DNA of 17,713 nucleotides, taken from contig DAOOUC010000013.1 of NCBI GenBank assembly GCA_035390665.1, positions 1-17,713 on the forward strand. Direction: 5' to 3'. The position numbers were made by a program, and so were the translations under genes. The notes below the pieces were generated by a model, which saw only the letters and a list, made by a program, of their open reading frames with translations, did not search any database and was not told the DNA's origin. Every line of letters starts with the position of its first letter. Positions within the stretch are counted from its first letter, which is position 1. Positions 1 through 17,713 of the stretch are shown in pieces. The DNA comes from an archaeon. Its GTDB lineage: Archaea > Iainarchaeota > Iainarchaeia > Iainarchaeales > CSSED10-239.

Positions 1-76
1 ACTCATAAATATCCCTAATCATTTCCTTTTGTCCTTTTCTAAAAGAGTCGTGTCTAAAATAAAGTTGTGCATTCAT
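1..76 (-). CDS. 5' end of a CDS that runs off the window; possibly a DEAD_2 / XPD-DinG-type helicase (tentative)
   Basis: Hand translation of the reverse complement from the ATG at 76-74 gives MNAQLYFRHDSFRKGQKEMIRDIYE with no stop before position 1. The F..(F)R.GQ.EM...I pattern resembles the N-terminus of Rad3/XPD/DinG-like helicases. Only 25 residues are visible. Confidence 0.3.
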   Translation of the reverse strand, partial: MNAQLYFRHDSFRKGQKEMIRDIYE

Positions 77-79
77 TTG

Positions 80-418
80 TTATTTCTTTTTAAATCCAAA
101 AAGTTTATTATATTTGTTGTGATCAATAAGATCAACGATAATTATAATGATCTCTATTTCTCCAGTATCTGTGATTGTGTAAAGTAGCCTCCAATATTCT
201 GAAAGTCTTACTTTTAATAAAAATTTAATATTATATTTTTCTAAATACCATTTTGGAATAAATTTTGATTTGACGGGTTCTCCAAAGTGAGGATCTTGTT
301 TAAGTAATTCTAGTTTTTCTGAAATAGATTTACTTAATATTCTTCCTTGTTTTGAATTATCCCTATTTATTTCTTCAAAGATTTTACTTGCTTCTTCTGA
401 AAATTGAATTTTAACCAT
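80..418 (-). CDS. RelE/ParE-family type II toxin-like protein
   Basis: This is track ORF 80..442. The likely true start is the internal Met (MVKIQFSEEA...) at 418, which overlaps the upstream gene's end (411) by 8 nt, as in TA operons. The layout is RelE/ParE-like: an N-terminal helix (ISEKLELLKQDPHFGEPVK), then a beta-rich core (LKVRLSEYWRLLYTITDTGEIEIIIIIVDLIDHNKY). Length is about 112 aa. Confidence 0.6.
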   Translation of the reverse strand: MVKIQFSEEASKIFEEINRDNSKQGRILSKSISEKLELLKQDPHFGEPVKSKFIPKWYLEKYNIKFLLKVRLSEYWRLLYTITDTGEIEIIIIIVDLIDHNKYNKLFGFKKK

Positions 419-722
419 ATACAATCCCTTTTTTGATTGCATCTTTTAGCTTCTTTGATGCAGGGTGTATATAAGTTATTCCTTTTTTTGAGTGTATTAT
501 CTGGTTAGTATATTCTAGATATTTCAAGATTTGTTTTAAATGTACTTTACTAACTTTATCTTTGACTTTCTTTTCAAGTTCTGTCTCTTTCATTATTGCT
601 TCAGGATATTTTTCAAGAATATCTTGAACAAGAAACACTTCGCTACCTGTTGGATAATAGTCAATCATAGGTTCTTTTAATTTTTTAGATTTAGAATCTT
701 TAACAACATATTTTGTAGTCAT
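411..722 (-). CDS. Small putative DNA-binding (winged-helix-like) protein; candidate antitoxin partner of the RelE/ParE-like gene
   Basis: This is track ORF 411..746. The likely start is MTTKYVV at 722. It lies immediately upstream of the toxin-like ORF and overlaps it. The segment VHLKQILKYLEYTNQIIHSKKGITYIH looks like a wHTH recognition helix plus wing. I did not recognise a family with confidence. Confidence 0.4.
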   Translation of the reverse strand: MTTKYVVKDSKSKKLKEPMIDYYPTGSEVFLVQDILEKYPEAIMKETELEKKVKDKVSKVHLKQILKYLEYTNQIIHSKKGITYIHPASKKLKDAIKKGIVYG

Positions 723-875: not shown

Positions 876-2228
876 ATGAAAAAATATAAAGTAAAGGCTC
901 TTGAGCCACTTATCGCATCAATTTTATTAATTGTAGTTGCTGTCATCCTTGTAACAATTGTTTTAAGTTGGGGTAAAGAATTTACAACAACTTCTGTAAA
1001 TAAAAGCAATTCTTTAATTAATCATGACATTCTAAGCGACAAGCAACCATTCATTCGCTTTGAAAAAGCAGAAAACGGAATGTATTTTTTTGATTTCTAT
1101 CCTCCAAACAATCAGGACATAAATTTTACAATAGTAGGTTATTCTCTAATTGGTTATAATAATTATATCCCTTTAGAACCAGAATACACAATAACCCACG
1201 CCGGCAAGTTTATGTTACCTTTAGGAATAATTGACGAAGACAGATTTACAATAGGTCTTCTTCTTGACGATGGTAGTTATCTAACCTTTAAAGATATAAC
1301 AAACAAAAACAGAAGCCCAAGCCCAAGTGATTGTCCAGCAGGCTTTGTTCCAGTACCTGGCAATCATCTTTATGGAACGGTTGGATCAAAGGGCGGCTTT
1401 TGTGTTGCACAGTTTGAGATGAAAGTTGATCAGAATGGCGATGGTCTTGGAGATAGCAACACAAGTTGTCAAAATAGCATTTATGCAACTTGGAATAATG
1501 CAGGCACTAATTGTGCATATAATACAGACACAAGAAGTTTAGTTTCAAGTGCAGCAGGTTATCCATTAGCAAACATATCTCAAACAGATTCAATCACTGC
1601 TTGTGAATCCATTGGTGGTCATTTAATAACCAATAACGAGTGGATGACCTTAGCAAGAAATATTGAAAGAGTACCAAGTAATTGGTCAAGCGACACAATT
1701 GGTACAGGATATATTTATTCTGGGCATAACGACGGAACTCCATATGCTGCACTTGCGGGAGACACTAACAACGGTAATGGTTATTATCTAACAGGTCAAA
1801 CAAGTGGCAATCAACGAAGAACTTTAACTCTAACAAATGGCGAAGTAGTTTGGGACTTAGCAGGAAATGTTTATGAATGGAGTGATACTATAAGTTCAGA
1901 TGATTTAAGTCTAGCTTATGATGATTATGAAAATTTAGGTGATGATGGAGAGTATTCTACATATTTTAGAACAGCAGACGGTAATTTTGGTAGTATAGGT
2001 TATAAAGGTAATTTTTTATTAAATTCAGATTATAATAGTGATAATGGAATTGGAAAAACTTGGGGTTGTACAACTGCATGTAATGGTGAGGAATATACAA
2101 TTGCGTTTTTGCGCGGCGGTACTTGGAGCAACGGAGCGAGCGCCGGACTTTTGACGTTGGACGCGAGCGGCGATCCGTCTAGCGCGGGCGGCGACTTCGG
2201 CTTTCGTTGTGTTGTAGTGCCCGAATGA
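876..2228 (+). CDS. DGR variable (target) protein: archaeal type IV pilin-like N-terminus plus C-terminal C-type-lectin / FGE-sulfatase-fold ligand-binding domain carrying the VR
   Basis: The N-terminus MKKYKVKALEPLIASILLIVVAVILVTIVLSWG has a short charged head followed by ALEPLIAxxLLI and a hydrophobic helix. This is the archaeal class III signal peptide ('archaeal flagellin N-terminal-like') pattern. From about aa 153 there are FGE-sulfatase/CLec hallmarks: CPAGFVPVPG, GFCVAQFEM, ACESIGGHLITNNEWMTLAR, GNVYEWSD, RGGTWS...FGFRCVVV. The VR occupies the C-terminal ~40 codons, in frame. Confidence 0.9.
   Translation: MKKYKVKALEPLIASILLIVVAVILVTIVLSWGKEFTTTSVNKSNSLINHDILSDKQPFIRFEKAENGMYFFDFYPPNNQDINFTIVGYSLIGYNNYIPLEPEYTITHAGKFMLPLGIIDEDRFTIGLLLDDGSYLTFKDITNKNRSPSPSDCPAGFVPVPGNHLYGTVGSKGGFCVAQFEMKVDQNGDGLGDSNTSCQNSIYATWNNAGTNCAYNTDTRSLVSSAAGYPLANISQTDSITACESIGGHLITNNEWMTLARNIERVPSNWSSDTIGTGYIYSGHNDGTPYAALAGDTNNGNGYYLTGQTSGNQRRTLTLTNGEVVWDLAGNVYEWSDTISSDDLSLAYDDYENLGDDGEYSTYFRTADGNFGSIGYKGNFLLNSDYNSDNGIGKTWGCTTACNGEEYTIAFLRGGTWSNGASAGLLTLDASGDPSSAGGDFGFRCVVVPE
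2101..2219 (+). repeat. DGR variable repeat (VR), in frame at the 3' end of the target gene
   Basis: These 119 bp align without gaps to 3231-3349. There are 20 mismatches, all at positions where the other copy has A (17 are G, 2 are C, 1 is T in this copy). Similarity stops abruptly at both ends: 2100 vs 3230 and 2220 vs 3350. The invariant 3' stretch tcggctttcgttgtgttgtagtg (2197-2219) is the expected position of an IMH-like element. Confidence 0.95.
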
Positions 2229-2342
2229 GCGTGGTCCGTTGTTTTGCCTGGACACTGGCTCCTGGACCACTGACTCCTGGAGTATAGTATGAAGTTTCTG
2301 TGAATGGAATAAAAAAGAGTTTTGGTAATAGTTGGGTTTGTT

Positions 2343-2380
2343 AAAAGGTACGATCGCGTAGCGACGTGCCTTTTGTGTTT
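2343..2380 (+). terminator. Hairpin followed by a T-run downstream of the target gene (putative terminator or DGR target-flank structure)
   Basis: aaaaggtacg (2343-2352) can pair with cgtgcctttt (2365-2374). That gives a 10-bp stem with one G.U wobble in RNA and a 12-nt loop (atcgcgtagcga). It is followed by ttttgtgttt. Confidence 0.4.
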
Positions 2381-2418
2381 GCAAAAAGATTAAAACGATA
2401 TCAGCTTAAAAAATAAAA

Positions 2419-2817
2419 TTGGGAAAAATAATGTGGGTTTATGATAAAGGGATTTCTAGTTTTAAAATATATCAAGAGATGTTTCCAGTAATTACCAATG
2501 CTTTAAATGCTTTGGTGGTTTGTGAAGAAAAAAATAAAAACTCGTCTTTTGCTTTTCTAATTTTGGATTCAAAAATAAAAGCAACAGATATTTTATCGTT
2601 TATTGCAAGTGGCTATAATAATTATGATACTAAGCTTAAAGTAATGGAATATAATAAAGCAAGAAACGCAATTTCTATTCTTCAATCTAATCTTATATTA
2701 TTAAATAATTATAAAATATTATTAGATGAAGATTTAAATGAAAATTACACTAATTTAGAAGATAAGTTAAAAATGATTTCTGGAGTTTTAAGAAAGATTG
2801 AAAAACTAAAAAACTGA
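2419..2817 (+). CDS. Hypothetical helical protein encoded inside the DGR cassette (possible divergent four-helix-bundle/Avd-like paralog)
   Basis: This is a 132-aa ORF. The track start is TTG at 2419, and an ATG at 2431 (MWVYDK...) is a likelier start. It ends 6 nt before the avd-like gene. The C-terminal half, KARNAISILQSNLILLNNYKILLDEDLNENYTNLEDKLKMISGVLRKIEKLK, loosely follows the pattern of the last two helices of four-helix-bundle (23S rRNA-IVS / Avd-type) proteins. No confident family assignment. Confidence 0.55.
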   Translation: MGKIMWVYDKGISSFKIYQEMFPVITNALNALVVCEEKNKNSSFAFLILDSKIKATDILSFIASGYNNYDTKLKVMEYNKARNAISILQSNLILLNNYKILLDEDLNENYTNLEDKLKMISGVLRKIEKLKN

Positions 2818-2823
2818 TAAAAT

Positions 2824-3156
2824 GTGCTTGATGATTTAAAAATATATAAAGAAAGTTATAATTTTTTTGTGTGGCTTTGGCCATTAATAAATAAATTTCC
2901 AAAATCTGAAAAATATGTTCTAGGTGAAAAACTAAAATTTTGTTTTTTAGAGTTCTTTGATGCAATTATTTCTTATAATTATAATTATGATAGAAAAGAA
3001 TCATTAAAAAAAGCAAATATAGAACTAGAAAAATTAAGATTATTTATAAGAATTGCAAGGGACTTAAATATTATTAATTTTACTAAATATGAAATTGCTT
3101 CTAGAAAATTAAACGAAATTGGTAAACTTCTAGGCGGTCTAATAAAAACAATTTAA
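2824..3156 (+). CDS. avd: Avd-like accessory variability determinant (four-helix-bundle protein family)
   Basis: The 110-aa sequence MLDDLKIYKESYNFFVWLWPLINKFPKSEKYVLGEKL...LEKLRLFIRIARDLNIINFTKYEIASRKLNEIGKLLGGLIKTI matches the four-helix-bundle family signature (l.vY..a..l...iy.l...fPk.Eky.L..ql ... l.iA.dl.yi....y..l...l.eigkmL.Glik). It sits directly upstream of TR, as in canonical DGRs. The start codon is GTG. Confidence 0.85.
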   Translation: MLDDLKIYKESYNFFVWLWPLINKFPKSEKYVLGEKLKFCFLEFFDAIISYNYNYDRKESLKKANIELEKLRLFIRIARDLNIINFTKYEIASRKLNEIGKLLGGLIKTI

Positions 3157-3230
3157 TTTAAAAAGTATTTCCATCTATCTTCTTTTGGGTTCTAAACCTA
3201 GGCTATACTAGATAACACAATGTTTGTCTG

Positions 3231-3349
3231 TTGCGTTTTTGCGCGGCGGTAATTGGAACAACGAAACGAACGCCGGACTTTTGAAATTGAACGCGAACAA
3301 CAATCCGTCTAACACGAACAACAACATCGGCTTTCGTTGTGTTGTAGTG
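3231..3349 (+). repeat. DGR template repeat (TR), non-coding master copy
   Basis: This is the adenine-rich copy of the 119-bp repeat, with 34 A. It is intergenic, between the avd-like gene and the RT. Read in the VR frame it encodes AFLRGGNWNNETNAGLLKLNANNNPSNTNNNIGFRCVVV, with 12 AAY (Asn) codons (10 AAC, 2 AAT). That is the classic DGR design, because adenine mutagenesis of AAY cannot create a stop codon. Confidence 0.95.
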
Positions 3350-3570
3350 TCTGCCCTAAAAGGGGTAATACAAAGAGTTTGTTTGTATTATTTTTAGTTA
3401 TTTAAAACAAACAAAGAAGTATTGTAAAAGAATACTACATTTAGTATATTCCTGGCTGGTATTTTTGCCTATATAATTTTAAATTATATAAAACAAGCCG
3501 AAAATAAACAAAAAAAAAGTAGTTAGTATTTTTTTAAAAGAATACTACTTTTTTTACAAAAATACAAAAT
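3350..3570 (+). ncRNA. TR-RT spacer, presumably part of the TR-containing DGR RNA; rich in hairpins
   Basis: There are four structures. Hairpin taatacaaa/tttgtatta is at 3366-3390. Hairpin agtatt/aatact is at 3418-3436. A perfect 10+1+10 palindrome, tatataattt-t-aaattatata, is at 3470-3490. Hairpin tagtatt/aatacta is at 3524-3547. The exact 14-mer taaaagaatactac occurs twice (3425-3438 and 3535-3548). No ORF is present. Confidence 0.5.
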
Positions 3571-4602
3571 ATGAAAACATATACTAGTTTGTGGCAGAAA
3601 CTAACTTCTTTTAAAAATCTATATCTTGCTTATAAAAAAGCAAAAAAAGCAAAACCACAAACTACTGATGCATTAGAATTTTCTATTAATTTAGAAAAAA
3701 ATATAGTGTTGCTTCAAGAGGAACTATTGACTGATAACTATAAACAATCAAAATATAGAACGTTTATAATATTTGATCCAAAACAAAGAATAATCAAATA
3801 TCTACCATTTAAAGATAGGGTTGTGCATCACGCGATAGTTAATATTATTGAACCGATTTTTGAAAAAAGATTTATTTCTACAAGTTATGCTTGTAGAAAA
3901 AAGAAAGGCACACATAAAGCACTAAAAGATATTAGAAAAGTAATTTATAACAAATTTAAAGACACAGGATATTGTTTGAAAGGAGATATAAGAAAGTATT
4001 TTCCTAGCATTAATCAAGACATTTTAAAAAATATAATTTCAAGAAAGATAAAAGATAAGAAACTATTAAATCTAATTTTTAAAATAATAACTAGCGATCA
4101 TTCCGATTTTGGAGAAACTAAAGGAATACCAATAGGTAATTTAACCAGTCAGTTATTTTCAAATATTTATCTTAATGAATTAGATCAATATGTTAAACAA
4201 GAATTAAATATAAAATACTATTACAGATATGTTGATGATTTTATAATCTTAAATGTTTCTAAGGAAGAATTGCATATAGATAAACAAAAAATAAAATATT
4301 TTCTTAAGAAAAGATTAGATCTAGATTTACCTAAGAGAAAATGTAATGTTTTTAAAATAAAAGACGGAGTTGATTATGTTGGTTATAAGCTTTTTCCAAA
4401 TAAGATATTAATAAGAAAAAGAAATCTTAAAAGATTTCTAAATAAAATAAAAAGCAAAAATACAAATAAAAACTATAATTCTTCAATTTATAGTTATTTA
4501 GGTTATTTTAAATACGCCAATTCATATAATTTATTATTAAAAATATTTGAAATTAATAAAACTTATTTAAGAGAAATAGAGCTAAGTAAAATCTATTCCT
4601 AA
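3571..4602 (+). CDS. DGR-type reverse transcriptase
   Basis: The 343-aa protein has RT motifs in order: FDPKQRIIKYLPFKDRVVHHAI, CLKGDIRKYFPSINQ, GIPIGNLTSQLFSNIYLNELD (the DGR-diagnostic [I/L]GxxxSQ), YYRYVDDFIIL (catalytic YxDD) and VDYVGYKLFP. Size and N-terminus (SFKNLYLAYKKAKKAK) are typical of DGR RTs. Confidence 0.93.
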   Translation: MKTYTSLWQKLTSFKNLYLAYKKAKKAKPQTTDALEFSINLEKNIVLLQEELLTDNYKQSKYRTFIIFDPKQRIIKYLPFKDRVVHHAIVNIIEPIFEKRFISTSYACRKKKGTHKALKDIRKVIYNKFKDTGYCLKGDIRKYFPSINQDILKNIISRKIKDKKLLNLIFKIITSDHSDFGETKGIPIGNLTSQLFSNIYLNELDQYVKQELNIKYYYRYVDDFIILNVSKEELHIDKQKIKYFLKKRLDLDLPKRKCNVFKIKDGVDYVGYKLFPNKILIRKRNLKRFLNKIKSKNTNKNYNSSIYSYLGYFKYANSYNLLLKIFEINKTYLREIELSKIYS

Positions 4603-4649
4603 TTTAATTTAAATAAACCTTTTTAAATTCTTTTATTCTTTGTTTTTGT

Positions 4650-5931: not shown

Positions 5932-7746
5932 ATGTTAAAAAAAGATTATCTTTTGTTTTTTTTAATACTTTCAATATTAATCTTTCCAACGGTTTATGCA
6001 AAAGAATTCAAAATAAACAATTATGAAATAACTTATTTTTTAGAAAAATCAGGAAAAATAAATGTTTCTGAAACAATAGATTATCAACTATCTGGTTGTT
6101 TTAAAGAACTTTATCTTCAAAGACCAGGAATTGATATTACAAATCCAACAGGGCAGTGTATAGGCGCAACTTGTGAATTTGAATATAAGCAGATAGGCAC
6201 AGAATCAGGTGACCCCGAACTAATATTACGTGGTAATTTCTGTAATCAAAAAGTTACTGCACATTTTAATTATAATTTGGAAAATCAAATTAGAAACTTA
6301 GTTGATGGTGCACAATTCTATTATCAAGTTTATCCTGGAAAAACAACTGTTTCAACTAATGCTAAAATTATGATTTATTTTCCAGGAGACATAAATAAAG
6401 TAACAAGATTTATTCATTCAAAAGATTATCTTTTAGAAACAAACGATAACGTATTAATTATTTCTAAACCGGTAGGTGCCTATGAAATAATAGAAATAAA
6501 TTTTTTAATGCCTAAGGAGTGGTTTAATCAAGGAAGTCTTTATAGCTATCCAGATACAAATTACACACAAGCTCAAATAATCCAACAAGAAGAAAACTGG
6601 GAAGAAGGTTATACAAAATATACAAAAGAAAATGTAAAAACAGAAGCGTCATTAGGCATTACATTTCTATATCTTTTCTTAATGATTGGTTTACCAATTT
6701 TATTATTATTTATTATTTGGTTAATATTTGGAAAAGAGATTCCAGAAAATAAAACAGGTTATTCAGGAACCTATGAAAGGGATTTACCTGGTGATGAAGA
6801 CCCAATTCAAGCACATTATTTAATAACAGGGAAATTATCAACACATTGGTTTTCGTCAGCAATCATGTATCTTGTTTGGAAAAAGCAATATGAATTAATA
6901 AAACAAGAAGACAAATCATTTTTTAGTTCTGAAAAATATAAATTAGTAAAAATAAAAAATGCACCAGAAATTAAACTTCCAGGTTATGTTTTAGAAGTTA
7001 ATAAATTTTTCTTAGAATATTATCCTGACGGCACAATTGATTTAGATGAATTAAAAAACGGGCAATACAAACCAAAAGGAGATTTAGATTTCTTCTCAGA
7101 ATTAGAGGAAAAAACTAATTTCGCAAACGATTTTAGTACTTTACAATTAAAGGTTAAAAAAGAAATAAGCAGATGGGAAAAAGAAAAAAAATATTTTAAT
7201 AAAACTGGAATGATTATAGCAAATATTACAATTGTTTTACATATATTTATTTTTTCAGAAATAATTCAGATGATATTTATGAGATATATTTTTCCAATAT
7301 GGATCTCATTTGTTTTTTGGAGTTGTATAATTTTAATAATTCTTGCAAATATTATTAGTAGATCCAAGATAAGTTTTGCAGTAATTTTTGGAAGGTTTTC
7401 TAAAGACGGCAGAGTTAAAAATTTACAATGGACAAATTTTAAAAGATACATAACCGATTATTCTTTAATGAAAGAGCACCCGCCACAACACGTGATTCTT
7501 TGGGAAGAATATATGGTTTATGCAACTGCTTTTGGAGTAGCAAAAGAAGTTTCAAAGGCATTAAAAGTGGTTATGCCGGAAGAAGTTTCAACAAATCAAC
7601 AATTTGCAGTATATTCAGCATTTGCAGTAAGTAGTTTTTCAACATCAACGGATTACTCGTCATCCGGCGGTAGTGGCGGCTTTGGTGGAGGTGGCGGGGG
7701 CTTTGGTGGTGGCGGTGGTGGGGGCGGCGGTGCCGGTGCCCGTTAA
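5932..7746 (+). CDS. DUF2207-type membrane protein with a C-terminal poly-glycine tail
   Basis: It has an N-terminal signal/anchor (LLFFLILSILIFPTVYA), a large extracytoplasmic domain and several TM helices. The tail SSGGSGGFGGGGGGFGGGGGGGGGAGAR is characteristic of the DUF2207 family. The start codon is 2 nt after the PRT stop. Confidence 0.75.
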   Translation: MLKKDYLLFFLILSILIFPTVYAKEFKINNYEITYFLEKSGKINVSETIDYQLSGCFKELYLQRPGIDITNPTGQCIGATCEFEYKQIGTESGDPELILRGNFCNQKVTAHFNYNLENQIRNLVDGAQFYYQVYPGKTTVSTNAKIMIYFPGDINKVTRFIHSKDYLLETNDNVLIISKPVGAYEIIEINFLMPKEWFNQGSLYSYPDTNYTQAQIIQQEENWEEGYTKYTKENVKTEASLGITFLYLFLMIGLPILLLFIIWLIFGKEIPENKTGYSGTYERDLPGDEDPIQAHYLITGKLSTHWFSSAIMYLVWKKQYELIKQEDKSFFSSEKYKLVKIKNAPEIKLPGYVLEVNKFFLEYYPDGTIDLDELKNGQYKPKGDLDFFSELEEKTNFANDFSTLQLKVKKEISRWEKEKKYFNKTGMIIANITIVLHIFIFSEIIQMIFMRYIFPIWISFVFWSCIILIILANIISRSKISFAVIFGRFSKDGRVKNLQWTNFKRYITDYSLMKEHPPQHVILWEEYMVYATAFGVAKEVSKALKVVMPEEVSTNQQFAVYSAFAVSSFSTSTDYSSSGGSGGFGGGGGGFGGGGGGGGGAGAR

Positions 7747-7823
7747 TCTATAAACAAATTATTTATAAATCCTTTATTCTTATTTATTTCTAAATATATT
7801 TATAAAATCAGGAGAGAAAAAAT

Positions 7824-10238
7824 ATGGTATCTAAAGAAAAACAATTTATTATGTGGTTTGATGAAGTAGGAATTGAAGACATTCCTTATGTTGGTGGAAA
7901 GAATGCCTCTCTTGGAGAAATGTATCAAAATCTTGGAAAAAAAGGCGTAAAGATTCCATTTGGTTTTGCAATTACAGCTTATGCTTACAGATATATTTTA
8001 GAAAAATCTGGAACAAAAAATGAAATTAAAAAAATATTAAAAGATTTAGATACTCATAACCTTGATTCTTTAGCAGAGAAAGGACATAAAATTAGAGATT
8101 TAATAAGACATACTGAGATTCCAAAAGATTTAGAAAAAGAAATATTTGATGCTTATGATAAACTTTGTAAAAAAGAAAAAATCCCTGATCTTGATGTCGC
8201 TGTAAGATCAAGTGCAACAGCTGAAGATCTTCCTGATGCTTCTTTTGCAGGACAACAAGAAAGTTATTTAAATATTAGAGGAAAAGCAAATCTTTTAGAA
8301 GCTGTAAGAAAATGTTTTGCTTCTCTTTTTACAAACAGAGCAATCTCTTATAGAGAAGATAAGCATTTTGATCACTTTAGTATTGCTCTTTCAGTTGTTG
8401 TTCAAAGAATGGTTAGAAGTGATTTAGCTTCTTCAGGAATAATGTTTTCAATTGATACAGAAACAGGTTTTAGAGATGTTGTTGTTATAAATTCAACTTA
8501 TGGTCTTGGAGAAAATATTGTTCAAGGTGCAGTCAATCCTGATGAATTTATTGTCTTTAAACCAACATTAAAACTTGGAAAAAAACCAATTATTTCTAAA
8601 GTTCTAGGAGAAAAAGCAATTAGAATGGTTTATGATAGAGAAGGCAATAAGCCAGTAAAAAATATTTCAGTTGAACCAACTGAAAGAAATAAGTTTTCAA
8701 TAACTGATGATCAAGCCTTGCAATTAGCAAAATGGGCTTGTGATATTGAAGAATACTATTCTAAAAAAGCAGGCTATCACAAACCAATGGATATGGAATG
8801 GGCCTTGGACGGTAAAACAAATGAATTGTTTATTGTTCAAGCAAGACCAGAAACAGTACAATCTAGAAAAAATTTAAATAGTTACACAACATACATTATG
8901 AACACAAATGAAAAACCAATAGTTATTGGAAAAAGTGTCGGCCAACAGATATCAACTGGAAAAGTAAAAGTAATAAAGGATGCAAAAGAAATCAATCAAT
9001 TTAGAAAAGGAGAAATTCTTGTAACAGAAATGACAGATCCAGATTGGGAACCAATCATGAAGATTGCTTCCGGAATAATAACAAACAAAGGTGGAAGAAC
9101 CTGCCATGCTGCAATTATTTCAAGAGAGCTTGGTATCCCTTGTGTTGTTGGAACAATTGACGGAACAGTAAAACTAAAAACCGGACAAGAAATAACAATG
9201 GATTGTTCAAGCGGAGATGCTGGTTTTGTTTACAATGGGAAAATACCTTTTACAAAACAAGTAACTGATTTAAAAGAATTACAAAAAACAAAAACACAGT
9301 TAATGATGAATGTGGGTAACCCAGAACAAGCATTTGATTTAAGTTTCTTGCCAAATGATGGTGTAGGCCTTGCAAGAGAAGAGTTTATTATCAACTCTTG
9401 GATACAGATTCATCCTCTTGCTCTTATCAATTACAATAAGATAACAGATGCAGAAACAAAAGCAAAGATTGATGAATTAACTGTTGGTTACACTGATAAA
9501 AAACAATATTTTGTAGATAAGTTAGCACAAGGTATTGCAAGAATTACAGCCGCATTCTATCCAAAGAAAGTAATTTTAAGACTTTCAGATTTTAAATCAA
9601 ATGAATATGCAAACTTAATTGGTGGTAAAGACTATGAGCCAATAGAAAGTAATCCAATGATTGGTTGGAGAGGTGCATCAAGATACTATCAAGGAAATTA
9701 TGTTGCAGGTTTTGCTTTAGAATGCCAGGCAATTAAAAAAGTAAGAGAAGAATTTGGTTTAACAAATTTAGAATTAATGATTCCTTTTTGTAGAACAATT
9801 GATGAAGCAAAGAAAGTATTTGCAGAAATGAAAAAGAATGGATTAGAGAAAGGAAAGAACGGTCTAAAAATAAACTGTATGTGTGAGATCCCTTCTAATG
9901 TAATTTTAGCAGATGATTTCTTAGAAGTCTTTGATGGTTTCAGTATTGGAAGTAATGATCTAACACAATTGACTTTAGGACTTGATAGAGACTCTGAACT
10001 TTTAGGTAATATCTATGATGAAAGAAATCCAGCAGTTAAAAAACTTCTTGCTGATGTCATAAAGATAGCAAACAAAAAGGGCAAATATATAGGTATCTGC
10101 GGGCAAGCGCCATCTGATTATCCAGAAATGGCAGAGTTCTTAGTAAAAGAAGGAATAAAATCAATGAGTTTAAATCCAGACTCAATTGTTAAAACAAGAA
10201 TTGCAATTGCAAAACTTGAAAAGAATTTAAAGAAGTAA
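7824..10238 (+). CDS. ppsA: Phosphoenolpyruvate synthase (pyruvate, water dikinase)
   Basis: The 804-aa protein has an N-terminal ATP-grasp region (VGGKNASLGEMY), the phosphohistidine swivel motif GGRTCHAAIISRELGIPCVVG and a C-terminal PEP-utilising TIM barrel (SIGSNDLTQLTLGLDRDS). A GGAG-like element lies 7-12 nt upstream of the ATG. Confidence 0.95.
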   Translation: MVSKEKQFIMWFDEVGIEDIPYVGGKNASLGEMYQNLGKKGVKIPFGFAITAYAYRYILEKSGTKNEIKKILKDLDTHNLDSLAEKGHKIRDLIRHTEIPKDLEKEIFDAYDKLCKKEKIPDLDVAVRSSATAEDLPDASFAGQQESYLNIRGKANLLEAVRKCFASLFTNRAISYREDKHFDHFSIALSVVVQRMVRSDLASSGIMFSIDTETGFRDVVVINSTYGLGENIVQGAVNPDEFIVFKPTLKLGKKPIISKVLGEKAIRMVYDREGNKPVKNISVEPTERNKFSITDDQALQLAKWACDIEEYYSKKAGYHKPMDMEWALDGKTNELFIVQARPETVQSRKNLNSYTTYIMNTNEKPIVIGKSVGQQISTGKVKVIKDAKEINQFRKGEILVTEMTDPDWEPIMKIASGIITNKGGRTCHAAIISRELGIPCVVGTIDGTVKLKTGQEITMDCSSGDAGFVYNGKIPFTKQVTDLKELQKTKTQLMMNVGNPEQAFDLSFLPNDGVGLAREEFIINSWIQIHPLALINYNKITDAETKAKIDELTVGYTDKKQYFVDKLAQGIARITAAFYPKKVILRLSDFKSNEYANLIGGKDYEPIESNPMIGWRGASRYYQGNYVAGFALECQAIKKVREEFGLTNLELMIPFCRTIDEAKKVFAEMKKNGLEKGKNGLKINCMCEIPSNVILADDFLEVFDGFSIGSNDLTQLTLGLDRDSELLGNIYDERNPAVKKLLADVIKIANKKGKYIGICGQAPSDYPEMAEFLVKEGIKSMSLNPDSIVKTRIAIAKLEKNLKK

Positions 10239-10263
10239 TTTTTACTTCTTTTCTTTTTTAATT

Positions 10264-10758
10264 TTGAAAAAAATGAAATCAATACTTTTCGTATGTTCAG
10301 GAAATATTTTTAGAAGCATGTGTGCTGAGCTTTTTCTAAAAAAACATCTTCAAGAAAAAAACATAAAAATTAAAGTAACTTCTGCAGGCATTACTGCAAA
10401 AAAGCAAGAGATTCACTTAATAGTAAAAAAAGAACTTGATAGATTAAATATTGATTATTCCAAGCACAAGCAAAGAAAAGTTACAAAAAAAATTCTAGAC
10501 TCTTCTTCTCTTGTAATCTCTATGGCAAAAGTTCATCAACAATTTCTTAAAGAAAAATTTAACAAAGATTCAATTCTTTTTAATGAAATAGTTTTTGAAA
10601 AGAAAGAAGATTTCTTAGATTATCCAGATATTTTAAAAGAAACAAATTCAGAGAAGAAAGCAGAAAACTATCTAAGAAAAGCAGTAAAGGAAATAGATAA
10701 AGGTACAAAGAAAATGCTTCTTTCAAAGAGTTTACAGCAGCTTTATAAACATAATTAA
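10264..10758 (+). CDS. Low-molecular-weight protein-tyrosine phosphatase (LMW-PTP / ArsC-like fold)
   Basis: The active-site P-loop ILFVCSGNIFRSMCAE (CX5R-S) lies at the N-terminus. The track start is TTG at 10264, and an ATG at 10273 (MKSILFVC) is an equally plausible start. Confidence 0.8.
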   Translation: MKKMKSILFVCSGNIFRSMCAELFLKKHLQEKNIKIKVTSAGITAKKQEIHLIVKKELDRLNIDYSKHKQRKVTKKILDSSSLVISMAKVHQQFLKEKFNKDSILFNEIVFEKKEDFLDYPDILKETNSEKKAENYLRKAVKEIDKGTKKMLLSKSLQQLYKHN

Positions 10759-11483: not shown

Positions 11484-14400
11484 ATGGCAAAAGCAAAATC
11501 CAAACCAGCTAAAGAAGAATTTGATGATTTTGAGGAAGAAGATTATGATTATTCCGATGAATCAAAATCAAAAGAAAAAAATATTTTCGGAAAAGCCTAT
11601 AGCTTTTTAGAAGAGAAATATTTTGCTTTTTCTGATTGGTTATCAAAGAAAGGAATTCCTTTAGATAAATTAAATACTTTCTTAGAAGAAAAAGGTATAC
11701 CTTCTTTTGCAGCAGTTACTTGTTTTTTCTTTTTGCTACTTGCAATAATTATTTTAATAATAATTAACATAGCAACAACAGCAACAATAGAATTAAACAT
11801 TACAGATTATTCTAATAATTCTTTATCTGATGTTCAATTAATTGTTTCTGATTTATATGGTAAAACAAAATTTAGTGGAATAGTAAATGATGGCGACAAA
11901 ATTAAAGCCAAATTAAAATCAGGAAGTGATTATGTAATTGAAGCCACAAAATCAGATTTAGAAAATTATAATAATCAGATAGTCTTTGTAAGAGGGGATA
12001 AATTTAATATAAAGTTTAATGAAAAATATACAACAGGAGATTTAAGTATTGTTGTAACAGATACTCAAACAAAGAAAAAAGTTCCATTATATGAAGTAAA
12101 ATTAAATTTTAGAATAAATGGAGAAGCAAAAGAAGAGGTTGCTATTGCAGATGAAAAAGGAGAAATTTCTTTTACAAATATTCCTTTAGATAAAGACATT
12201 ACATTAACAGTTAATGCAGATGGCTATCAAACATATTCTCAAAATTTTAGATTATTAAATTCTGTTGAAACAAAAAATATAGAATTGGCATTTGATGAAG
12301 ATTCTATATTATTATCAGGAAAAGAATCCAAAGTTACAATCGTTGTAACAAAAGAAAATGGAGACTTGATAGATGCAGCAGATGTAACAATTTATAACAC
12401 AGCAGGAGAAATAATTGCAACAAATTTAACTGTTCTTGGTAAATCAGTATTTACTTTAAACTCTGGTCAAGCAATAAGGTTTGTAGTATCAAAAGAAGGA
12501 TATAGAACATATGATAGTGATAAAGAAGAAAGATCTTATAGAATACAAAACCCAGAAGAAACCTATACTGCAAAATTAATTGCAGGAAGTTCTGATTTAA
12601 AAGTAAAAGTTTTAGAAAAAGGTGTTGGTCCTTTATCTGAAGCAGAAGTTTCTTTATATAATTCAAGTAATAATTTAATTGAAAGTAAAACAACACAATT
12701 AGACGGGATTGTAATATTTACAGGTTTAGATAAAAATACAGAATATATTGTAACAGCTTGTAAAACAGGATACTATTGTTTACAATCTTTTGCAAACATA
12801 GAAGAAGAAAACGAAATTCAACAAGAGTTAGAAAAAGTAAGCATAGACACTAGTGCATTATTATCTATTTATGTTTATGATTCTTTAAATTCTCCAATGA
12901 CAAACGCAAAAGTTAATGTTTTTAAAGAAGTTATGTCAAGATATGTGGCAACAGGTCATGGCACATTATCTGTTGATTTAACAGGCCAAACATCAATAAT
13001 GACAAAACATGGAGACAAATATAAAGTAACTGCAATTGTTGGCGAAGTTGAAAAAACAGAAGAGATAACTATTGATCCTTTTAAAGATAATAAATTAATT
13101 TTGATTTTAGATCAAGCATCAAGATTTGTTACTTTAAATTTAACAGATAAAGATGGAAATCCAATAACTGAAGGTTGTGTATTAATAAAATCAAAAACAG
13201 GAGAAATTCTTTTTGATGATTGTTTGAATGGTTCAAATATAGTTGAATTTAATAATAAAGGATATAAAGATTTAATTGTAGAATACACAGACATAGAAGG
13301 AAACACAACAACCATGTCAACAAGACTTGGAGAATCTGATGAAATAAATTTAAAAATTAAGCAAACAACTGTTGGAAATAATCCAGTAATTAGCTTCTTA
13401 GAATTAAGGGATTCTTATAATTCTTTAACTCCAATTTTAAGTTTAGATAAAGAATATTATGCAGTCTTTGATGTTTTGATACCAGAAGGGGCAACATCTT
13501 GTGCAGTACATTTTAGAGCAGGAGATGATGAACAAACAGATTCAGATAATATGACTTACGGAATAACAGGTTATAAGGCAGACACAACAAATTACAAGTA
13601 TTCAACAACATACACCCCAGGGCAACAATCAATAGATTATGATAATTCTGGTTCTCCAAATCAAATAAACAAATGGCTAGAATTATATTGGAAGAATTTA
13701 GATCAAATAACAAATAAGCAAATAATGATAAAATTAAAAGCAACAGAACTTGATGAAAAATTTATTTTAAAATATAGAGTGTGGTGTGAATCTGAAGGAA
13801 AAGTATATAGAGATCCAATAGATTCTGTTTTAGGAGAAACAAGATCTAATTCTCAAAAACAATTTTTATATGCAGACACAAAAGAGCAAACATTTGATGT
13901 TTTAGAAACTCCTGCAGATTGCTCCGGAGATTTATGTATTGATTATAAGTTTATAGATGATAGCTCATTTGAATATACTCCCGAAAAATTCTATGCAGTT
14001 AAAGAAGGATTATATGCATTAGAGTTGTCTTTCTTAAGTATGAAAAATACAGAATTATCAATTGATTCTGAAACAGACAAATCTAGACCAATAATTGGGT
14101 TAGTAAATTATCAAGATACAGGAATGTTCCCAAGTAATACTGTAGCTTCAGAAGAAGTTCAATTATCTTACACAAATTTAAATTTAGAAGCAACAAAAAG
14201 AAAAGCAGTTTATCTTTTCTTTATTGCAAAAGAAACAGGATCAACATATCTTGATTTAAAAATAAATAATAATTCTAAAATTACAGAAAAAAGAATAAGT
14301 TTTAATGTTGTTCCAAGAAAAACAATGGAAGTTTTAGTTAAAGATGTAATACCATATAATTCTCCAATAGTTGTTGAGATTAAAGACAAAGACACAAAAA

Positions 14401-17400
14401 AAATAGTAGATACTGCCTTTGTGAAAGTAAGTGATGATTCTGGAAGTTTATTAGGTAGTGTGAAAAATAGTAAAACAGGGAAATATATAATTAATCAAAA
14501 TTTCTCTGTAGCAAAACCAATTCTTGAAGTTACTGCTCCAGGTTATGCTCCATATGCAAAACATTTGATTATTGCAGATACAGGCATATTGTCTGCACCA
14601 GATAGATTAGAAATTAGATTTGGAGAAAACATTAGTCAAGAGTCAGAGTCATTTATAATAATAAATAAAAGTAGTCAAGAAATTACAGATTTAACCTATC
14701 AATTAAATTATATTGATTATGTTGCAAGCATGCAAGCAACTTTAGACTTACCAGCTGTGTTAAAATCAGGAAAATCTGAAAACTTAGAATTAATAACAAC
14801 CGTTGATCCTAAAGCAAATTTTAAAACCGCAAAAGGAATTTTAACAATTTCAGGATTTATTGGTAATAAGCAAGTTGTTAAAGAAATTGAAGTAATTTAT
14901 TATAGAGGAACAATAGAAAGTGATTGTTTAGAAATAAAACCAAAACAATTGTTTGCTTATGTTGGAATAAGTGAAGGTTCAAGTCAAGAGTTAATGTTTT
15001 CTGTACATAACAATTGTCAAAAAGCAATATCTATAACTCCTGAGCTATTAAATTCAAGAGGCACAAAGATTAGAAAAGATGAAAATATAGAAATAATTAT
15101 TCCAAATATAGATATAGAAGCAAATGAACAAATTGATGATTATACAATTGTTGTAAAAAATAATAAAGAAAGAAAATTAACAAAAACTTATAATTTCGAA
15201 ATAGCATGGAGAAATCAATATTTTGTTTTCGAAAATACAAAACTTAATGTTGAATTAGTAGATTTGTCAAAATCATTAGTAGTTATACCATTGGCATCAG
15301 CAATTTCTTTAGTACAAGTTGTAGATCAACAACCAGCATTAAATCAAACAAGATTTATATTAAAGAATGTTGGTAAATATCCATTAACAGACATCCAAAT
15401 ATCTAGATTTGAAGCAACAACATATTCAAATATAGAAGATAAAATAGAGCCTCCAAGTTTTGAATCTATAAAACCAGGAGAATCAAAATCAATAACAATA
15501 AGGTATTCTGGTAAAATTGATAAAGCAACATATGCTGATTTATATTATCAGGTTACAGCTAATGCAGTAGGGGTCAGTACACCAATAACTACAAAGTTTA
15601 GTGTTGGATTTATGTTTTCTTCTGCTGGTTGTTTAAAGTTAGATCAAACAAAGATTAGTTTCTATTCTAAAGTAAATGAAGAAAAAACAAAATTAATTAA
15701 TATTACAAATCAGTGTGCAGAACCTGTAGGTTTAATAACACACGACCAGGGAAATAGCACATATTTTATAGATACCTTTGGAGATGGAACACAGGTTTCA
15801 ATATATCCTGCAGTTGCTGCTCCTGTAATTTATCCTGGTCAAACAATAGGTTATTTTATAAGAATAAAACCAACTAAATATTTCACACCAAAAACAGATA
15901 GAGTTGTGAGATTATTAGGTGTTCCAACAAATTATGGACAAGGAGGAAGAGTAACTTCAAATACTTTCCTATTTTCTATAGAATTAGAACCAGAACACCC
16001 AGATCAAGAAGAAGATTATAAAAGAGTAGAAGAAAATATAAGTATTCCAGTTTGTGGAAAAGATTCAGAATCTGACGATTCAACAGTTGATTATACTTTC
16101 CCAGTAATTGTCCCTGATTGTAAACAAGACGGATATTGTGATTCCTATTCTGCTGCCGAGTTAATTTTAGAGCAAATACAAAGTTTACATACAGAAGTAA
16201 TAAATTCTTCAAATCAAGCAAATAATAAAGTTGTTCAAACAGCATGTTCACAAACTGCAGCAAATAACGGTTATTGTCCAATCTCAGACATATTGCCTCC
16301 ACAAAAATTACAAGAATATAAAAATATTTTATTGTATTTACAAAATGATAACTTAAGTGAAAGAACTATTGAGTTATTATTAAAAGATGGAAACACAAGT
16401 GCAACTAAATATCCAACCATAAAAGATTACATGGTAAAGGCAAATGTAGGTTATACAACAGGTGGTTTAGGATTTTCAGGAAATGTAATACATATTTCAA
16501 ATAAATTAAATGGTTGTGGAAGATATAAATTAGAAATAACAGGAGCCATAGCTACAAAAAACTACACAGACTTAGATCCACAAAGGGCTTATTTCTTCTT
16601 AGATGTAGTTGATTCAAATAAAACAGATCAATGTAAAAAAAATATAGAAAATGTAATGATATTTTTACCAAAAGATTTGAAATTTAGAAGAACAAATACA
16701 GGAGATACTTGGCTTACAATAATAACAGGAAGCAAAGATTTTGCACAACCAATAGCAAAAGATGTATTTGGTTCAGAAGATAGATTTGTTTTAAAATCAG
16801 TAGAACAAAAGAAATACAGTTTATTAGATGTAACAATAGGGGAATTAAAAGACAGTGAATCTGATGCAATCGCAAAAATGTATTATAAAGATTCAGTTGA
16901 TTCAAATAATTCTAAAGCCGAAGAAGTTTCAATAATAATAAATGATAAATTTGGAATTAAAAAAGAAGGCATTAAAGATGTAAATTATCCTGCAGAATTT
17001 ATAACAGATACTTCAAGAAGCATTAAAGCAATATTAGAAGGTAAACCTGCAAATATTTGTATATCAGAAGACAAAAGTTATATGTTAATTATGTCTATTG
17101 ATTCAGATTATGGATCTTTATTCTTAAAATCAAAAGCAGATGGTAAATTACAATTAAAACCAACAAAGACATGTACAGAGTTTACAGTTAAATCAGCAGT
17201 TAATGAACAAGTTTCAATTTCTTATGAAGATCTTTCAGGAATTCAACTTAATTTTAACTATGATGGTAAAGATTATCCAAGTCCTATGCCTTTGGTTTTA
17301 GAAAAAGACAAAGAATTAGATTTCAATGTTTGTATTAAATCAGACATTAGTCAAATATCGTCTTGGAATAATAAAGAATTAAAAGTAATAGCTGAAAGTA

Positions 17401-17713
17401 AATTTTCTGAAGTTGGAAAAATTAATTCTAAAAGGAAAGGAGAAGCAATTGTAAAATTATCTTCTTATGGAATAACCCCTATGGAATTACTTTCAGTAAT
17501 ACAAACAACAAAAGATGAAATGATTAAAGATAAAAAAGACAATGAAATAATCTATGCTTATGTTGATTGGGAAAAAGAATATAGTTCTTCAAACACAGAA
17601 GAATACTGTAAGACTTTAGAAAGATATAATTTAAAATTAGGAGACAAAGAAACAACATTTAGAAAACCTGCAGAATGTGATTTTGAGGAAAGTAAATCAG
17701 AAAAAACTGCAAA
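11484..17713 (+). CDS. Giant membrane-anchored surface protein, 3'-truncated by the window end (more than 2076 codons)
   Basis: It is absent from the supplied ORF track. Hand translation from the ATG at 11484 stays open for 6230 nt to the last base. No other + strand ORF and only short - strand shadow ORFs are listed here. It has an acidic N-terminal tail (EEFDDFEEEDYDYSDES) and one TM helix (about aa 74-98, nt ~11703-11777). Then come tandem beta-sandwich-like repeats and Cys-containing, Asn/Thr/Ser-rich extracellular sequence. Confidence 0.85.
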   Translation, partial: MAKAKSKPAKEEFDDFEEEDYDYSDESKSKEKNIFGKAYSFLEEKYFAFSDWLSKKGIPLDKLNTFLEEKGIPSFAAVTCFFFLLLAIIILIIINIATTATIELNITDYSNNSLSDVQLIVSDLYGKTKFSGIVNDGDKIKAKLKSGSDYVIEATKSDLENYNNQIVFVRGDKFNIKFNEKYTTGDLSIVVTDTQTKKKVPLYEVKLNFRINGEAKEEVAIADEKGEISFTNIPLDKDITLTVNADGYQTYSQNFRLLNSVETKNIELAFDEDSILLSGKESKVTIVVTKENGDLIDAADVTIYNTAGEIIATNLTVLGKSVFTLNSGQAIRFVVSKEGYRTYDSDKEERSYRIQNPEETYTAKLIAGSSDLKVKVLEKGVGPLSEAEVSLYNSSNNLIESKTTQLDGIVIFTGLDKNTEYIVTACKTGYYCLQSFANIEEENEIQQELEKVSIDTSALLSIYVYDSLNSPMTNAKVNVFKEVMSRYVATGHGTLSVDLTGQTSIMTKHGDKYKVTAIVGEVEKTEEITIDPFKDNKLILILDQASRFVTLNLTDKDGNPITEGCVLIKSKTGEILFDDCLNGSNIVEFNNKGYKDLIVEYTDIEGNTTTMSTRLGESDEINLKIKQTTVGNNPVISFLELRDSYNSLTPILSLDKEYYAVFDVLIPEGATSCAVHFRAGDDEQTDSDNMTYGITGYKADTTNYKYSTTYTPGQQSIDYDNSGSPNQINKWLELYWKNLDQITNKQIMIKLKATELDEKFILKYRVWCESEGKVYRDPIDSVLGETRSNSQKQFLYADTKEQTFDVLETPADCSGDLCIDYKFIDDSSFEYTPEKFYAVKEGLYALELSFLSMKNTELSIDSETDKSRPIIGLVNYQDTGMFPSNTVASEEVQLSYTNLNLEATKRKAVYLFFIAKETGSTYLDLKINNNSKITEKRISFNVVPRKTMEVLVKDVIPYNSPIVVEIKDKDTKKIVDTAFVKVSDDSGSLLGSVKNSKTGKYIINQNFSVAKPILEVTAPGYAPYAKHLIIADTGILSAPDRLEIRFGENISQESESFIIINKSSQEITDLTYQLNYIDYVASMQATLDLPAVLKSGKSENLELITTVDPKANFKTAKGILTISGFIGNKQVVKEIEVIYYRGTIESDCLEIKPKQLFAYVGISEGSSQELMFSVHNNCQKAISITPELLNSRGTKIRKDENIEIIIPNIDIEANEQIDDYTIVVKNNKERKLTKTYNFEIAWRNQYFVFENTKLNVELVDLSKSLVVIPLASAISLVQVVDQQPALNQTRFILKNVGKYPLTDIQISRFEATTYSNIEDKIEPPSFESIKPGESKSITIRYSGKIDKATYADLYYQVTANAVGVSTPITTKFSVGFMFSSAGCLKLDQTKISFYSKVNEEKTKLINITNQCAEPVGLITHDQGNSTYFIDTFGDGTQVSIYPAVAAPVIYPGQTIGYFIRIKPTKYFTPKTDRVVRLLGVPTNYGQGGRVTSNTFLFSIELEPEHPDQEEDYKRVEENISIPVCGKDSESDDSTVDYTFPVIVPDCKQDGYCDSYSAAELILEQIQSLHTEVINSSNQANNKVVQTACSQTAANNGYCPISDILPPQKLQEYKNILLYLQNDNLSERTIELLLKDGNTSATKYPTIKDYMVKANVGYTTGGLGFSGNVIHISNKLNGCGRYKLEITGAIATKNYTDLDPQRAYFFLDVVDSNKTDQCKKNIENVMIFLPKDLKFRRTNTGDTWLTIITGSKDFAQPIAKDVFGSEDRFVLKSVEQKKYSLLDVTIGELKDSESDAIAKMYYKDSVDSNNSKAEEVSIIINDKFGIKKEGIKDVNYPAEFITDTSRSIKAILEGKPANICISEDKSYMLIMSIDSDYGSLFLKSKADGKLQLKPTKTCTEFTVKSAVNEQVSISYEDLSGIQLNFNYDGKDYPSPMPLVLEKDKELDFNVCIKSDISQISSWNNKELKVIAESKFSEVGKINSKRKGEAIVKLSSYGITPMELLSVIQTTKDEMIKDKKDNEIIYAYVDWEKEYSSSNTEEYCKTLERYNLKLGDKETTFRKPAECDFEESKSEKTA

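Follow-up and report, generated by a model that had tools for sequence, protein, structure and literature searches.

A diversity-generating retroelement that very probably varies a pilin-like surface lectin in the chromosome of an uncultured archaeon

The stretch of DNA analysed here (the window, 17,713 nucleotides in full) encodes proteins that are deposited in identical form as HOW29810-HOW29819 under the label 'MAG: archaeon' (MAG, metagenome-assembled genome). At 876-4602 the window carries, in this order on the forward strand, a gene that ends in a variable repeat (VR), a small open reading frame (ORF) that we call ORF-X, a gene for Avd, a non-coding template repeat (TR) and a gene for a reverse transcriptase (RT), which together have the anatomy of a diversity-generating retroelement (DGR). 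DGRs were first discovered in phages. We conclude that the segment is very probably a chromosomal DGR of an uncultured, probably DPANN-type, archaeon, and that its product of variation is a pilin-like surface lectin; the alternatives are that the two repeats are an ordinary duplication, that the element is a relic, or that it belongs to a virus.

Compared without gaps over 119 nt, VR and TR show 20 mismatches, all of which (20/20) lie at TR adenines (17 A>G, two A>C and one A>T); 20 of the 34 adenines of TR are substituted in VR, and the non-A positions are unchanged throughout (85/85). Chance alone would confine 20 mismatches to A with a probability of (34/119)^20 = 1.3e-11, or of 5.7e-14 in a hypergeometric calculation. 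Because the flanks of the two repeats are unrelated on both sides, the similarity ends abruptly at the borders, and the pair is the longest direct repeat that a repeat search returned within the window. An adenine-masked scan of both strands gave no further VR-like copy in the window. VR is in frame with the 450-aa target ORF and ends 9 nt before its stop codon, and TR is located 221 nt upstream of the RT start, with no ORF of at least 60 aa over it on the forward strand. When TR is read in the VR frame, codon positions 1 and 2 hold 30 of its 34 adenines, a typical codon design, and the final 23 nt of both repeats are invariant, which is compatible with an initiation of mutagenic homing (IMH) site. 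A preliminary description of this DNA, made from the letters alone, had claimed a 119-bp pair with 20 mismatches confined to template adenines, sharp homology borders, 12 AAY codons in TR, an in-frame VR at the extreme C-terminus of a protein with a C-type lectin (CLec)/FGE fold, and a non-coding TR between an Avd-like gene and the RT; realignment and codon analysis returned exactly these figures and this arrangement, and the fold is supported by the structural model discussed below.

The RT speaks against the view that TR and VR are an ordinary duplication or gene-conversion tract beside an unrelated enzyme of the group II or retron type. Public records do call this RT 'retron-type' or, in the GenBank entry itself, 'reverse transcriptase/maturase family protein', and the best-scoring NCBIfam model is that of group II RTs (TIGR04416, 152 bits), yet this score is half of the cutoff of 300, and the models for retron St85 (51 against a cutoff of 235) and Drt2/3/4 also stay below their cutoffs. 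In a phmmer search of the PDB, the best match was bRT of Bordetella phage (8ub7, 8e-55, 190 bits, over residues 3-323); the next match had an E value of 1.8e-21, and group II or 'retron-type' RTs scored at most about 80 bits, which places bRT 110 bits above any group II RT. Moreover, the 343-aa protein lacks a maturase or endonuclease extension, a bona fide Avd adjoins it, and an Rfam scan of the window gave no match and no group II intron RNA (a tRNA scan was likewise empty). By similarity scores, the RT appears clearly nearer to the DGR type than to the enzymes of group II introns, retrons or Drt systems, and the motifs IGNLTSQ, which has the DGR form [ILV]GxxxSQ, and YVDD, both named in the preliminary description, are present in the translation; that description had allowed that the RT might instead side with group II or retron RTs, and by these scores it does not. 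With mismatches that are all on A at a probability of about 1e-11 or less, a group II score below cutoff, the similarity to bRT and the neighbouring Avd, we regard the duplication reading as refuted and give it next to no probability.

Avd itself is assigned by two profiles, the NCBIfam equivalog NF033474 DivGenRetAVD (103.2 bits, cutoff 80) and Pfam bAvd (84.1 bits, cutoff 40), so that the gene first described as Avd-like passes a profile check at both cutoffs, and the identical protein in GenBank (HOW29812.1) is already named 'diversity-generating retroelement protein Avd'. The positions of these and the other features of the segment are collected in Table 1.

Table 1. Features of the retroelement and its target, with positions in the window (or residues of the target protein)
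Feature	Position	Strand	Remarks
DGR target (variable protein)	876-2228	+	450 aa; Pfam FGE-sulfatase 30.5 bits, cutoff 23.3
Target, putative class III signal/pilin-like helix	aa 1-44		KVKA↓LEPLIA...
Target, predicted beta-sandwich domain	aa ~60-141		
Target, predicted FGE-type CLec domain	aa ~150-450		
Variable repeat (VR)	2101-2219	+	encodes the last ~40 residues of the target (AFLRGGTWSNGASAGLLTLDASGDPSSAGGDFGFRCVVV)
G+C-rich element 3' of VR	2220-2290	+	candidate target-recognition element (IMH-flank/hairpin)
Terminator-like hairpin and T-run	2345-2378	+	after the target gene; stem 2355-2368 plus CCTTTTGTGT
ORF-X	2431-2817	+	128 aa, pI 8.6; in tandem with Avd, between target and Avd
Avd	2824-3156	+	110 aa, pI 9.4, GTG start
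5' leader of TR	3157-3230	+	conserved, non-coding (TCTATCTTCTTTTGGGTTYTAAACCTAGGCTATACTARATAACACAA)
Template repeat (TR)	3231-3349	+	non-coding; 34 adenines; 12 AAY codons in VR frame
TR-to-RT spacer	3350-3570	+	presumed 3' part of the DGR RNA; counterpart of BPP-1 'Sp'
Spacer hairpin 1	3347-3371	+	directly 3' of TR; core TGCCCT/GGGGTA
Spacer hairpin 2	3378-3415	+	TTTGTTTGT / ACAAACAAA, variable loop
DGR RT	3571-4602	+	343 aa; motifs IGNLTSQ and YVDD; Pfam RVT_1

ORF-X appears to be a divergent second member of the Avd/23S-rRNA-IVS four-helix-bundle family. All 11 members of the ORF-X family match PF05635 below threshold (best 1.9e-5); the window copy does so at an E value of 0.016 (15.9 bits, cutoff 33.8), and the orthologues of L011 and L005 cover the whole profile (5e-6 and 1.3e-5, respectively), where L001, L002 and so on denote public contigs or metagenome loci related to the window. 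An AlphaFold2 (AF2) model of ORF-X has four helices (pLDDT 74.5, with one of five models confident), and the leading Foldseek matches, 2gsc and 2rld, belong to the Avd/23S-IVS family, with Avd itself (4dwl) at rank 20 and with weak E values of 0.02-0.3 for the top matches. One ORF-X homologue carries the annotation 'four helix bundle protein [archaeon]'. L005 keeps the tandem of ORF-X and Avd, as does L011 with an RT only 68% identical to that of the window, and more distant relatives have a single Avd.

The protein that carries VR combines a lectin with an N-terminus of another kind. Its AF2 model, built with 81 homologues (pLDDT 86, pTM 0.84), is matched best in the PDB by the DGR variable proteins TaqVP (5vf4, E 7e-6) and Mtd (1yu4) and by FGE in Foldseek searches, and the model therefore points to a CLec/FGE-fold scaffold that displays VR. 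At the other end, the sequence MKKYKVKA↓LEPLIASILLIVVAVILVTIVL (the arrow marking the putative processing site) fits the pattern of a basic leader, a [KR][GA] site and a hydrophobic helix; residues 4-47 match an archaeal filament subunit ('flagellin', 8fk7) in phmmer at E 2e-3, and Pfam Pilin_N (PF07790) is matched by 44 of the 81 homologues (best 2.9e-4), the window protein itself not being within E 0.1. The model places a 35-residue helix (aa 10-44) before the beta-sandwich (aa 60-141), and Foldseek matches this N-terminal part to the pilins of Pyrobaculum (6w8u) and Sulfolobus (6nav) at E ~2e-3 and probability 1.0. Both sequence and model thus make the N-terminus look like an archaeal class III signal peptide and type IV pilin helix. 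Lower-ranking homologues align over the C-terminal ~65% alone (40-49% identity); their N-termini instead have the N-methylation motifs of bacterial prepilins, and the targets of the related DGR loci L022, L047 and L064 likewise have bacterial prepilin N-termini. No pilus assembly genes lie within the window. Since a CLec domain stands on a type IV pilin-like N-terminus, the target would be an adhesin that varies in specificity and is displayed on the cell surface or on a pilus.

The non-coding parts of the element are conserved among its relatives. From the Avd stop codon to the RT start (3157-3570), the window shares ~82% nucleotide identity with L010 and L011, the RT proteins of which are 67-68% identical to that of the window, and the TR leader is almost invariant among the window, L005 and L010 despite an L010 RT protein that is 67% identical. 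In the spacer, single-sequence folds of the window/L005, L010, L014 and L041 give hairpin 1 a stem of 5-7 bp whose sequences differ, and by eye, from the alignment only, L011 has ACTCTT/AAGAGT where L010 has ACCCTT/AAGGGT; RNAalifold does not call this hairpin because of alignment gaps. Hairpin 2 is part of the RNAalifold consensus, two of its nine pairs being retained through double changes in L014 and L041. The spacer RNA of BPP-1 binds bRT-Avd and primes cDNA synthesis (PMC6182149), and by analogy hairpins 1 and 2 probably belong to the DGR RNA. The spacer also contains an inverted repeat (3519-3556) immediately before the RT start. RNAalifold also predicts a hairpin within TR (3318-3345), in which the final AAC codons (ACAACAACATCGG) are paired to the invariant 3' end (CGTTGTGTTGT); it is without covariation because its columns are invariant, and it would be present in the TR RNA and broken in mutated VRs. 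On the target side, the G+C-rich element that follows VR, conserved even in the diverged strain L005, contains the inverted repeat GTGGTCC (2231-2237)/GGACCAC (2264-2270), and the comparison with BPP-1 makes it a candidate for target recognition. Its DNA fold, a 7-bp stem with a 26-nt loop, is not significant (z -1.3), and hence we claim no IMH hairpin there.

Natural alleles of the locus vary in the way that the repeat pair predicts. The target proteins P0001 and P0123 differ in VR only. Their contigs (L009 and L008, respectively) come from different samples and over ~1.8 kb agree in everything but two contig-end bases and 21 VR sites. All 21 differences (21/21) lie where the window TR has A, and in both alleles the non-A positions are those of TR (85/85). 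Over 865-2824, L007 shares 98.7% identity with the window and has all its differences within VR, its VR being frameshifted in a contig of 3.6x coverage. L005, a 95-96% identical strain, has an identical RT protein and its own TR. At L005:1527-1760, a gap of 10 N at the 3' end of VR is followed by a second VR-like fragment with other A-site substitutions and a 3-nt insertion, and at ~3.4x coverage the assembly has probably collapsed here over a population of differing VRs. Taken together, the alleles of the window, L008 and L009 have 28 polymorphic VR sites, all at TR adenines, and 30 of the 34 adenines are changed in at least one allele. TR behaves in the opposite manner: those of L005, L010 and L011 differ from the window TR at 9-10 positions, just one of them an A, and the TR of L092 differs at one position, the same A. 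Variation of VR restricted to adenines, with a TR that keeps its adenines, is the signature expected of mutagenic retrohoming.

Several observations weigh against an active DGR of this kind, or against single parts of the reading. Eight public contigs encode exactly the RT of the window. Five of them (L001, which is the source contig ERZ27257456 k141_51376, L002-L004 and L006) share 99.88-100% identity with the window, and their VR is the same in 5/5; no VR diversification is visible in the window's own clone at this timescale, and these five near-identical assemblies give no sign of present-day activity there. The preliminary description had proposed to look in the source population for sites that vary in VR at TR-A positions only, and with public assemblies in place of reads this pattern was found among sister alleles and not in the window's clone, where VR is invariant. 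The substitutions of the window VR are skewed towards G (17/20, P 3e-6 against equal thirds; 36/53 over the window, L008 and L009), which could reflect selection for Gly, Ala, Ser and Asp or a bias of the RT rather than fresh random mutagenesis. In L011, the C-terminal part of the adjacent lectin gene (L011:110-1300) shows 51/119 mismatches to the TR of that locus (2280-2398), 22 of them at A, in an otherwise identical layout of ORF-X, Avd, TR and RT; its VR has either decayed or is no longer the target, and cassettes of this sub-clade can therefore decay. DNA folding identified no canonical tight GC hairpin or IMH/IMH* pair 3' of VR. Finally, an hhalign comparison between the ORF-X family and the one Avd sequence of the window gave no signal, so the assignment of ORF-X rests on sub-threshold Pfam matches and on its fold.

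Much of this would be explained if the element were a relic or silent DGR and VR in the window's clone a frozen allele, possibly kept by selection. In favour of a relic, VR is identical in the five assemblies although these differ elsewhere by up to 17 single-nucleotide polymorphisms (SNPs) in 14 kb, the Gly/Ala/Ser/Asp-rich, G-skewed VR suggests a selected allele, and L011 demonstrates that an adjacent VR can decay. One TR codon of the window, moreover, is AAA (3284-3286), where the relatives L005, L010, L011 and L092 all have AAC; unlike AAY, AAA can become TAA, TAG or TGA by adenine mutagenesis, and it is a derived and potentially deleterious state. Set against this, all ORFs are intact and the catalytic motifs are conserved, the 85/85 identity of VR and TR at non-A positions argues for recent homing or ongoing homogenization, and sister strains carry multiple VR alleles. 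As to the invariance of VR in the clone, the expected background in 119 nt is only ~0.14 SNPs, the five assemblies may stem from repeated assembly of related samples and perhaps are not independent, and consensus contigs hide minor alleles. We consider a relic unlikely, while granting it more weight than any other alternative discussed here.

The archaeal origin proposed in the preliminary description agrees with the 'MAG: archaeon' label of the identical proteins, and homologues are labelled archaeon, Candidatus (I)ainarchaeum and Nanoarchaeota, with Patescibacteria at lower identity; from these labels the host is probably of the DPANN type. For the RT, the labels are archaeon, Nanoarchaeota and Patescibacteria, and a genome-contig search with it found one relative, from an 'uncultured archaeon'. 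The cassette is flanked by genes for a ParE-like toxin, a flavodoxin/ferredoxin, a phosphoribosyltransferase, a DUF2207 protein, a PEP synthase, a low-molecular-weight (LMW) phosphatase, LemA and a giant surface-type protein, and the flanking genes are syntenic in several strains. This context bears on whether the cassette is part of an integrated archaeal virus or other mobile element, the target then being a viral receptor-binding protein. DGRs are phage elements by discovery and many relatives of the RT are viral (173 records among annotated phage genomes match at 35-43% identity, including Bordetella and crAss-like phages); an insertion sequence (IS) with a DDE transposase adjoins the cassette in L007 and L093, and the gene for the ParE-like toxin is adjacent. 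Nevertheless, the window has no viral hallmark genes (capsid, terminase, tail or integrase), the flanks are housekeeping and membrane genes, and no viral RT comes nearer than 47% identity, while the RTs of cellular archaeal contigs reach 67-91%; the N-terminus of the target, in addition, resembles a class III signal and pilin helix and not a tail-fibre type. The absence of viral hallmarks and the distance of the nearest viral RT indicate that the element is chromosomal and cellular, and a viral or mobile origin seems to us highly improbable.

Several features of the surroundings may be recorded here. The ParE-like toxin gene (80-442, minus strand; Pfam ParE_toxin, 26.5 bits) overlaps a 111-aa ORF without a family match (411-746), and 80-746 probably encodes a toxin-antitoxin pair, which lies directly upstream of the DGR target and is divergent from it. 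The DDE_Tnp_1 IS lies in L007 at 802-1695, 11 nt upstream of the target ATG (window junction 865), and in L093 at 1097-1990, 43 nt past the RT stop codon (window junction ~4645); the two copies share 88% protein identity and the common termini CTGTAGAAATCC...GGGTTTCTACA, and the same IS family thus flanks the cassette on opposite sides in different strains. In L091 (1359-4559), a 93-98% identical strain, the RT gene is followed by extra genes for a DUF7768 protein and an SSF-family transporter, then by the flavodoxin/ferredoxin gene and an extra GDSL lipase gene; the right flank of the cassette is thus a strain-variable spot. A 47-nt inverted repeat around the cassette (793-839/4601-4647), AT-rich and 70% complementary, was judged to be due to chance. 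An AT-rich motif, TAAAYAAA..TTTWTAAAT..CTTTTMTTCTT, recurs at 4610-4647, 7751-7788 and 10228-10265, just upstream of three consecutive genes, and may be an archaeal promoter of the TATA/BRE type with very short leaders; a sigma-70 promoter scan of the window did not rise above background, which is normal for an archaeon. A glycine-rich run at the end of the DUF2207 membrane protein (7650-7746; …SSGGSGGFGGGGGGFGGGGGGGGGAGAR) accounts for a local G+C spike at 7501-8000 in a genome of 28% G+C. The giant ORF at 11484-17713 runs past the end of the window (2210 aa in the L001 contig) and has CarboxypepD_reg and alpha-2-macroglobulin MG3-like domains; it is probably a very large surface protein, and it contains no VR-like copy of TR.

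The retroelement belongs to a broad family. A metagenome scan with the RT profile returned 80 loci, 30 of which have TR/VR pairs of 87-132 nt with at least 80% of the mismatches at A, and the order target, Avd, TR, RT is found in most of these 30. The window TR (3242-3341) shares 68-78% nucleotide identity with the TRs of L013-L084, a set that includes DGRs with bacterial-type pilin targets, the RTs being just 40-55% identical. The lectin VR scaffold and its template are more conserved than the enzymes, and across many of the loci from the scan TR is 70-78% identical, which reflects their common lectin scaffold.

Among known systems, the DGR of BPP-1 (mtd-avd-TR-brt) is the natural reference. 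Both elements have the order target, avd, TR, RT, a VR at the extreme C-terminus of an FGE-type CLec protein, AAY codons, mismatches at A only and a basic Avd, and the window RT scores 190 bits against bRT. The BPP-1 element, however, resides in a phage and this one in a cellular archaeon; the target there has the N-terminus of a tail-fibre trimer, and here a pilin-like one; the window locus has an apparent extra Avd-family gene and a spacer RNA unrelated in sequence; and DNA folding found no recognizable IMH and tight hairpin of the BPP-1 type in the window locus. The preliminary description had placed the locus within the BPP-1 Mtd/Avd/bRT paradigm, which holds for the set of components and does not extend to the apparent extra Avd-family gene or the pilin-like N-terminus of the target.

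Paul and colleagues, in Nature Microbiology in 2017, reportedly described an abundance of DGRs in DPANN and candidate phyla radiation (CPR) organisms. Archaeal DGRs had been described in 2015, with small basic ORFs between target and RT (PMC4372165, legend to Fig. 3), and CLec-fold targets of archaeal DGRs in 2016 (PMC5006420); putative pilin-like targets in the DPANN/CPR set are mentioned second-hand in PMC6642488, which cites the 2017 work. Like the DGRs of Nanoarchaeota, other DPANN archaea and CPR organisms, the element described here is chromosomal, resides in an uncultured, probably ultra-small archaeon, has a CLec target of presumed surface or attachment function and has small basic ORFs between target and RT (PMC4372165). 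It differs from Nanoarchaeota AvpA, which has an internal VR in a non-FGE variant of CLec (PMC5006420), in its terminal VR and FGE-type fold, and from surveyed DGRs in the tandem of ORF-X and Avd, two avd genes having been found in 1/372 DGRs of the survey by Wu et al. 2018 (PMC5758913). TaqVP (Thermus aquaticus) and TvpA (Treponema) are also FGE-type CLec proteins with a C-terminal VR, at ~15% identity to the window target and with unlike N-terminal modules, TaqVP being without a pilin signal. DGRs of Bacteroides diversify type V pilus adhesins (bioRxiv 10.1101/2024.11.15.621889) and hence likewise vary an adhesive pilus-associated protein; these are bacterial type V pili as against an archaeal type IV-like pilus, in another domain of life and with another context of the target fold, and incorporation of the window target into a pilus is our inference. 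Full-text literature searches, whose scope left most subscription papers outside, found no paper describing an archaeal-pilin DGR target.

By analogy with BPP-1, we propose that an RNA spanning the leader, TR and the structured spacer would be bound by RT and Avd, and that ORF-X, as an apparent tandem Avd-like paralogue, probably participates with them. Reverse transcription of the TR RNA would be faithful save opposite adenines, and the A-mutagenized cDNA would then replace VR at the 3' end of the target gene. The outcome would be combinatorial variation of ~17 codons, 12 of them AAY in TR, on the ligand-binding face of the CLec domain. It is possible, although we would put it at somewhat less than an even chance, that the target is a true, probably minor or tip, subunit of a type IV-like pilus for attachment to a host or substrate and that the RT of this sub-clade uses ORF-X together with Avd. 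In CPR-like bacteria the same lectin module (40-49% identical over the C-terminal 65%) is joined to bacterial prepilin N-termini, and on this reading a hypervariable adhesin cassette would have been exchanged between the domains, its N-terminus swapped to suit the pilus machinery of each.

Archaeal DGRs have been known since 2015-2017, and the locus is a clean example of an established system. It leaves the current picture unchanged, because earlier work had reported DGRs of DPANN and CPR organisms as well as CLec and pilin-like targets, and Avd was already named in GenBank. What it adds is an FGE-type lectin, known also in bacterial-prepilin versions, with a putative archaeal-pilin N-terminus, a conserved second gene of apparent Avd family, spacer hairpins with covariation support and several natural VR alleles. 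Clean, complete and well sampled, with intact RT, Avd, TR and VR, multiple alleles and related strains, the locus may serve as a convenient model for how ultra-small archaea vary their attachment proteins, for a possible part of a second Avd paralogue in the RT complex, and for the RNA elements 3' of TR in the priming of archaeal DGRs.

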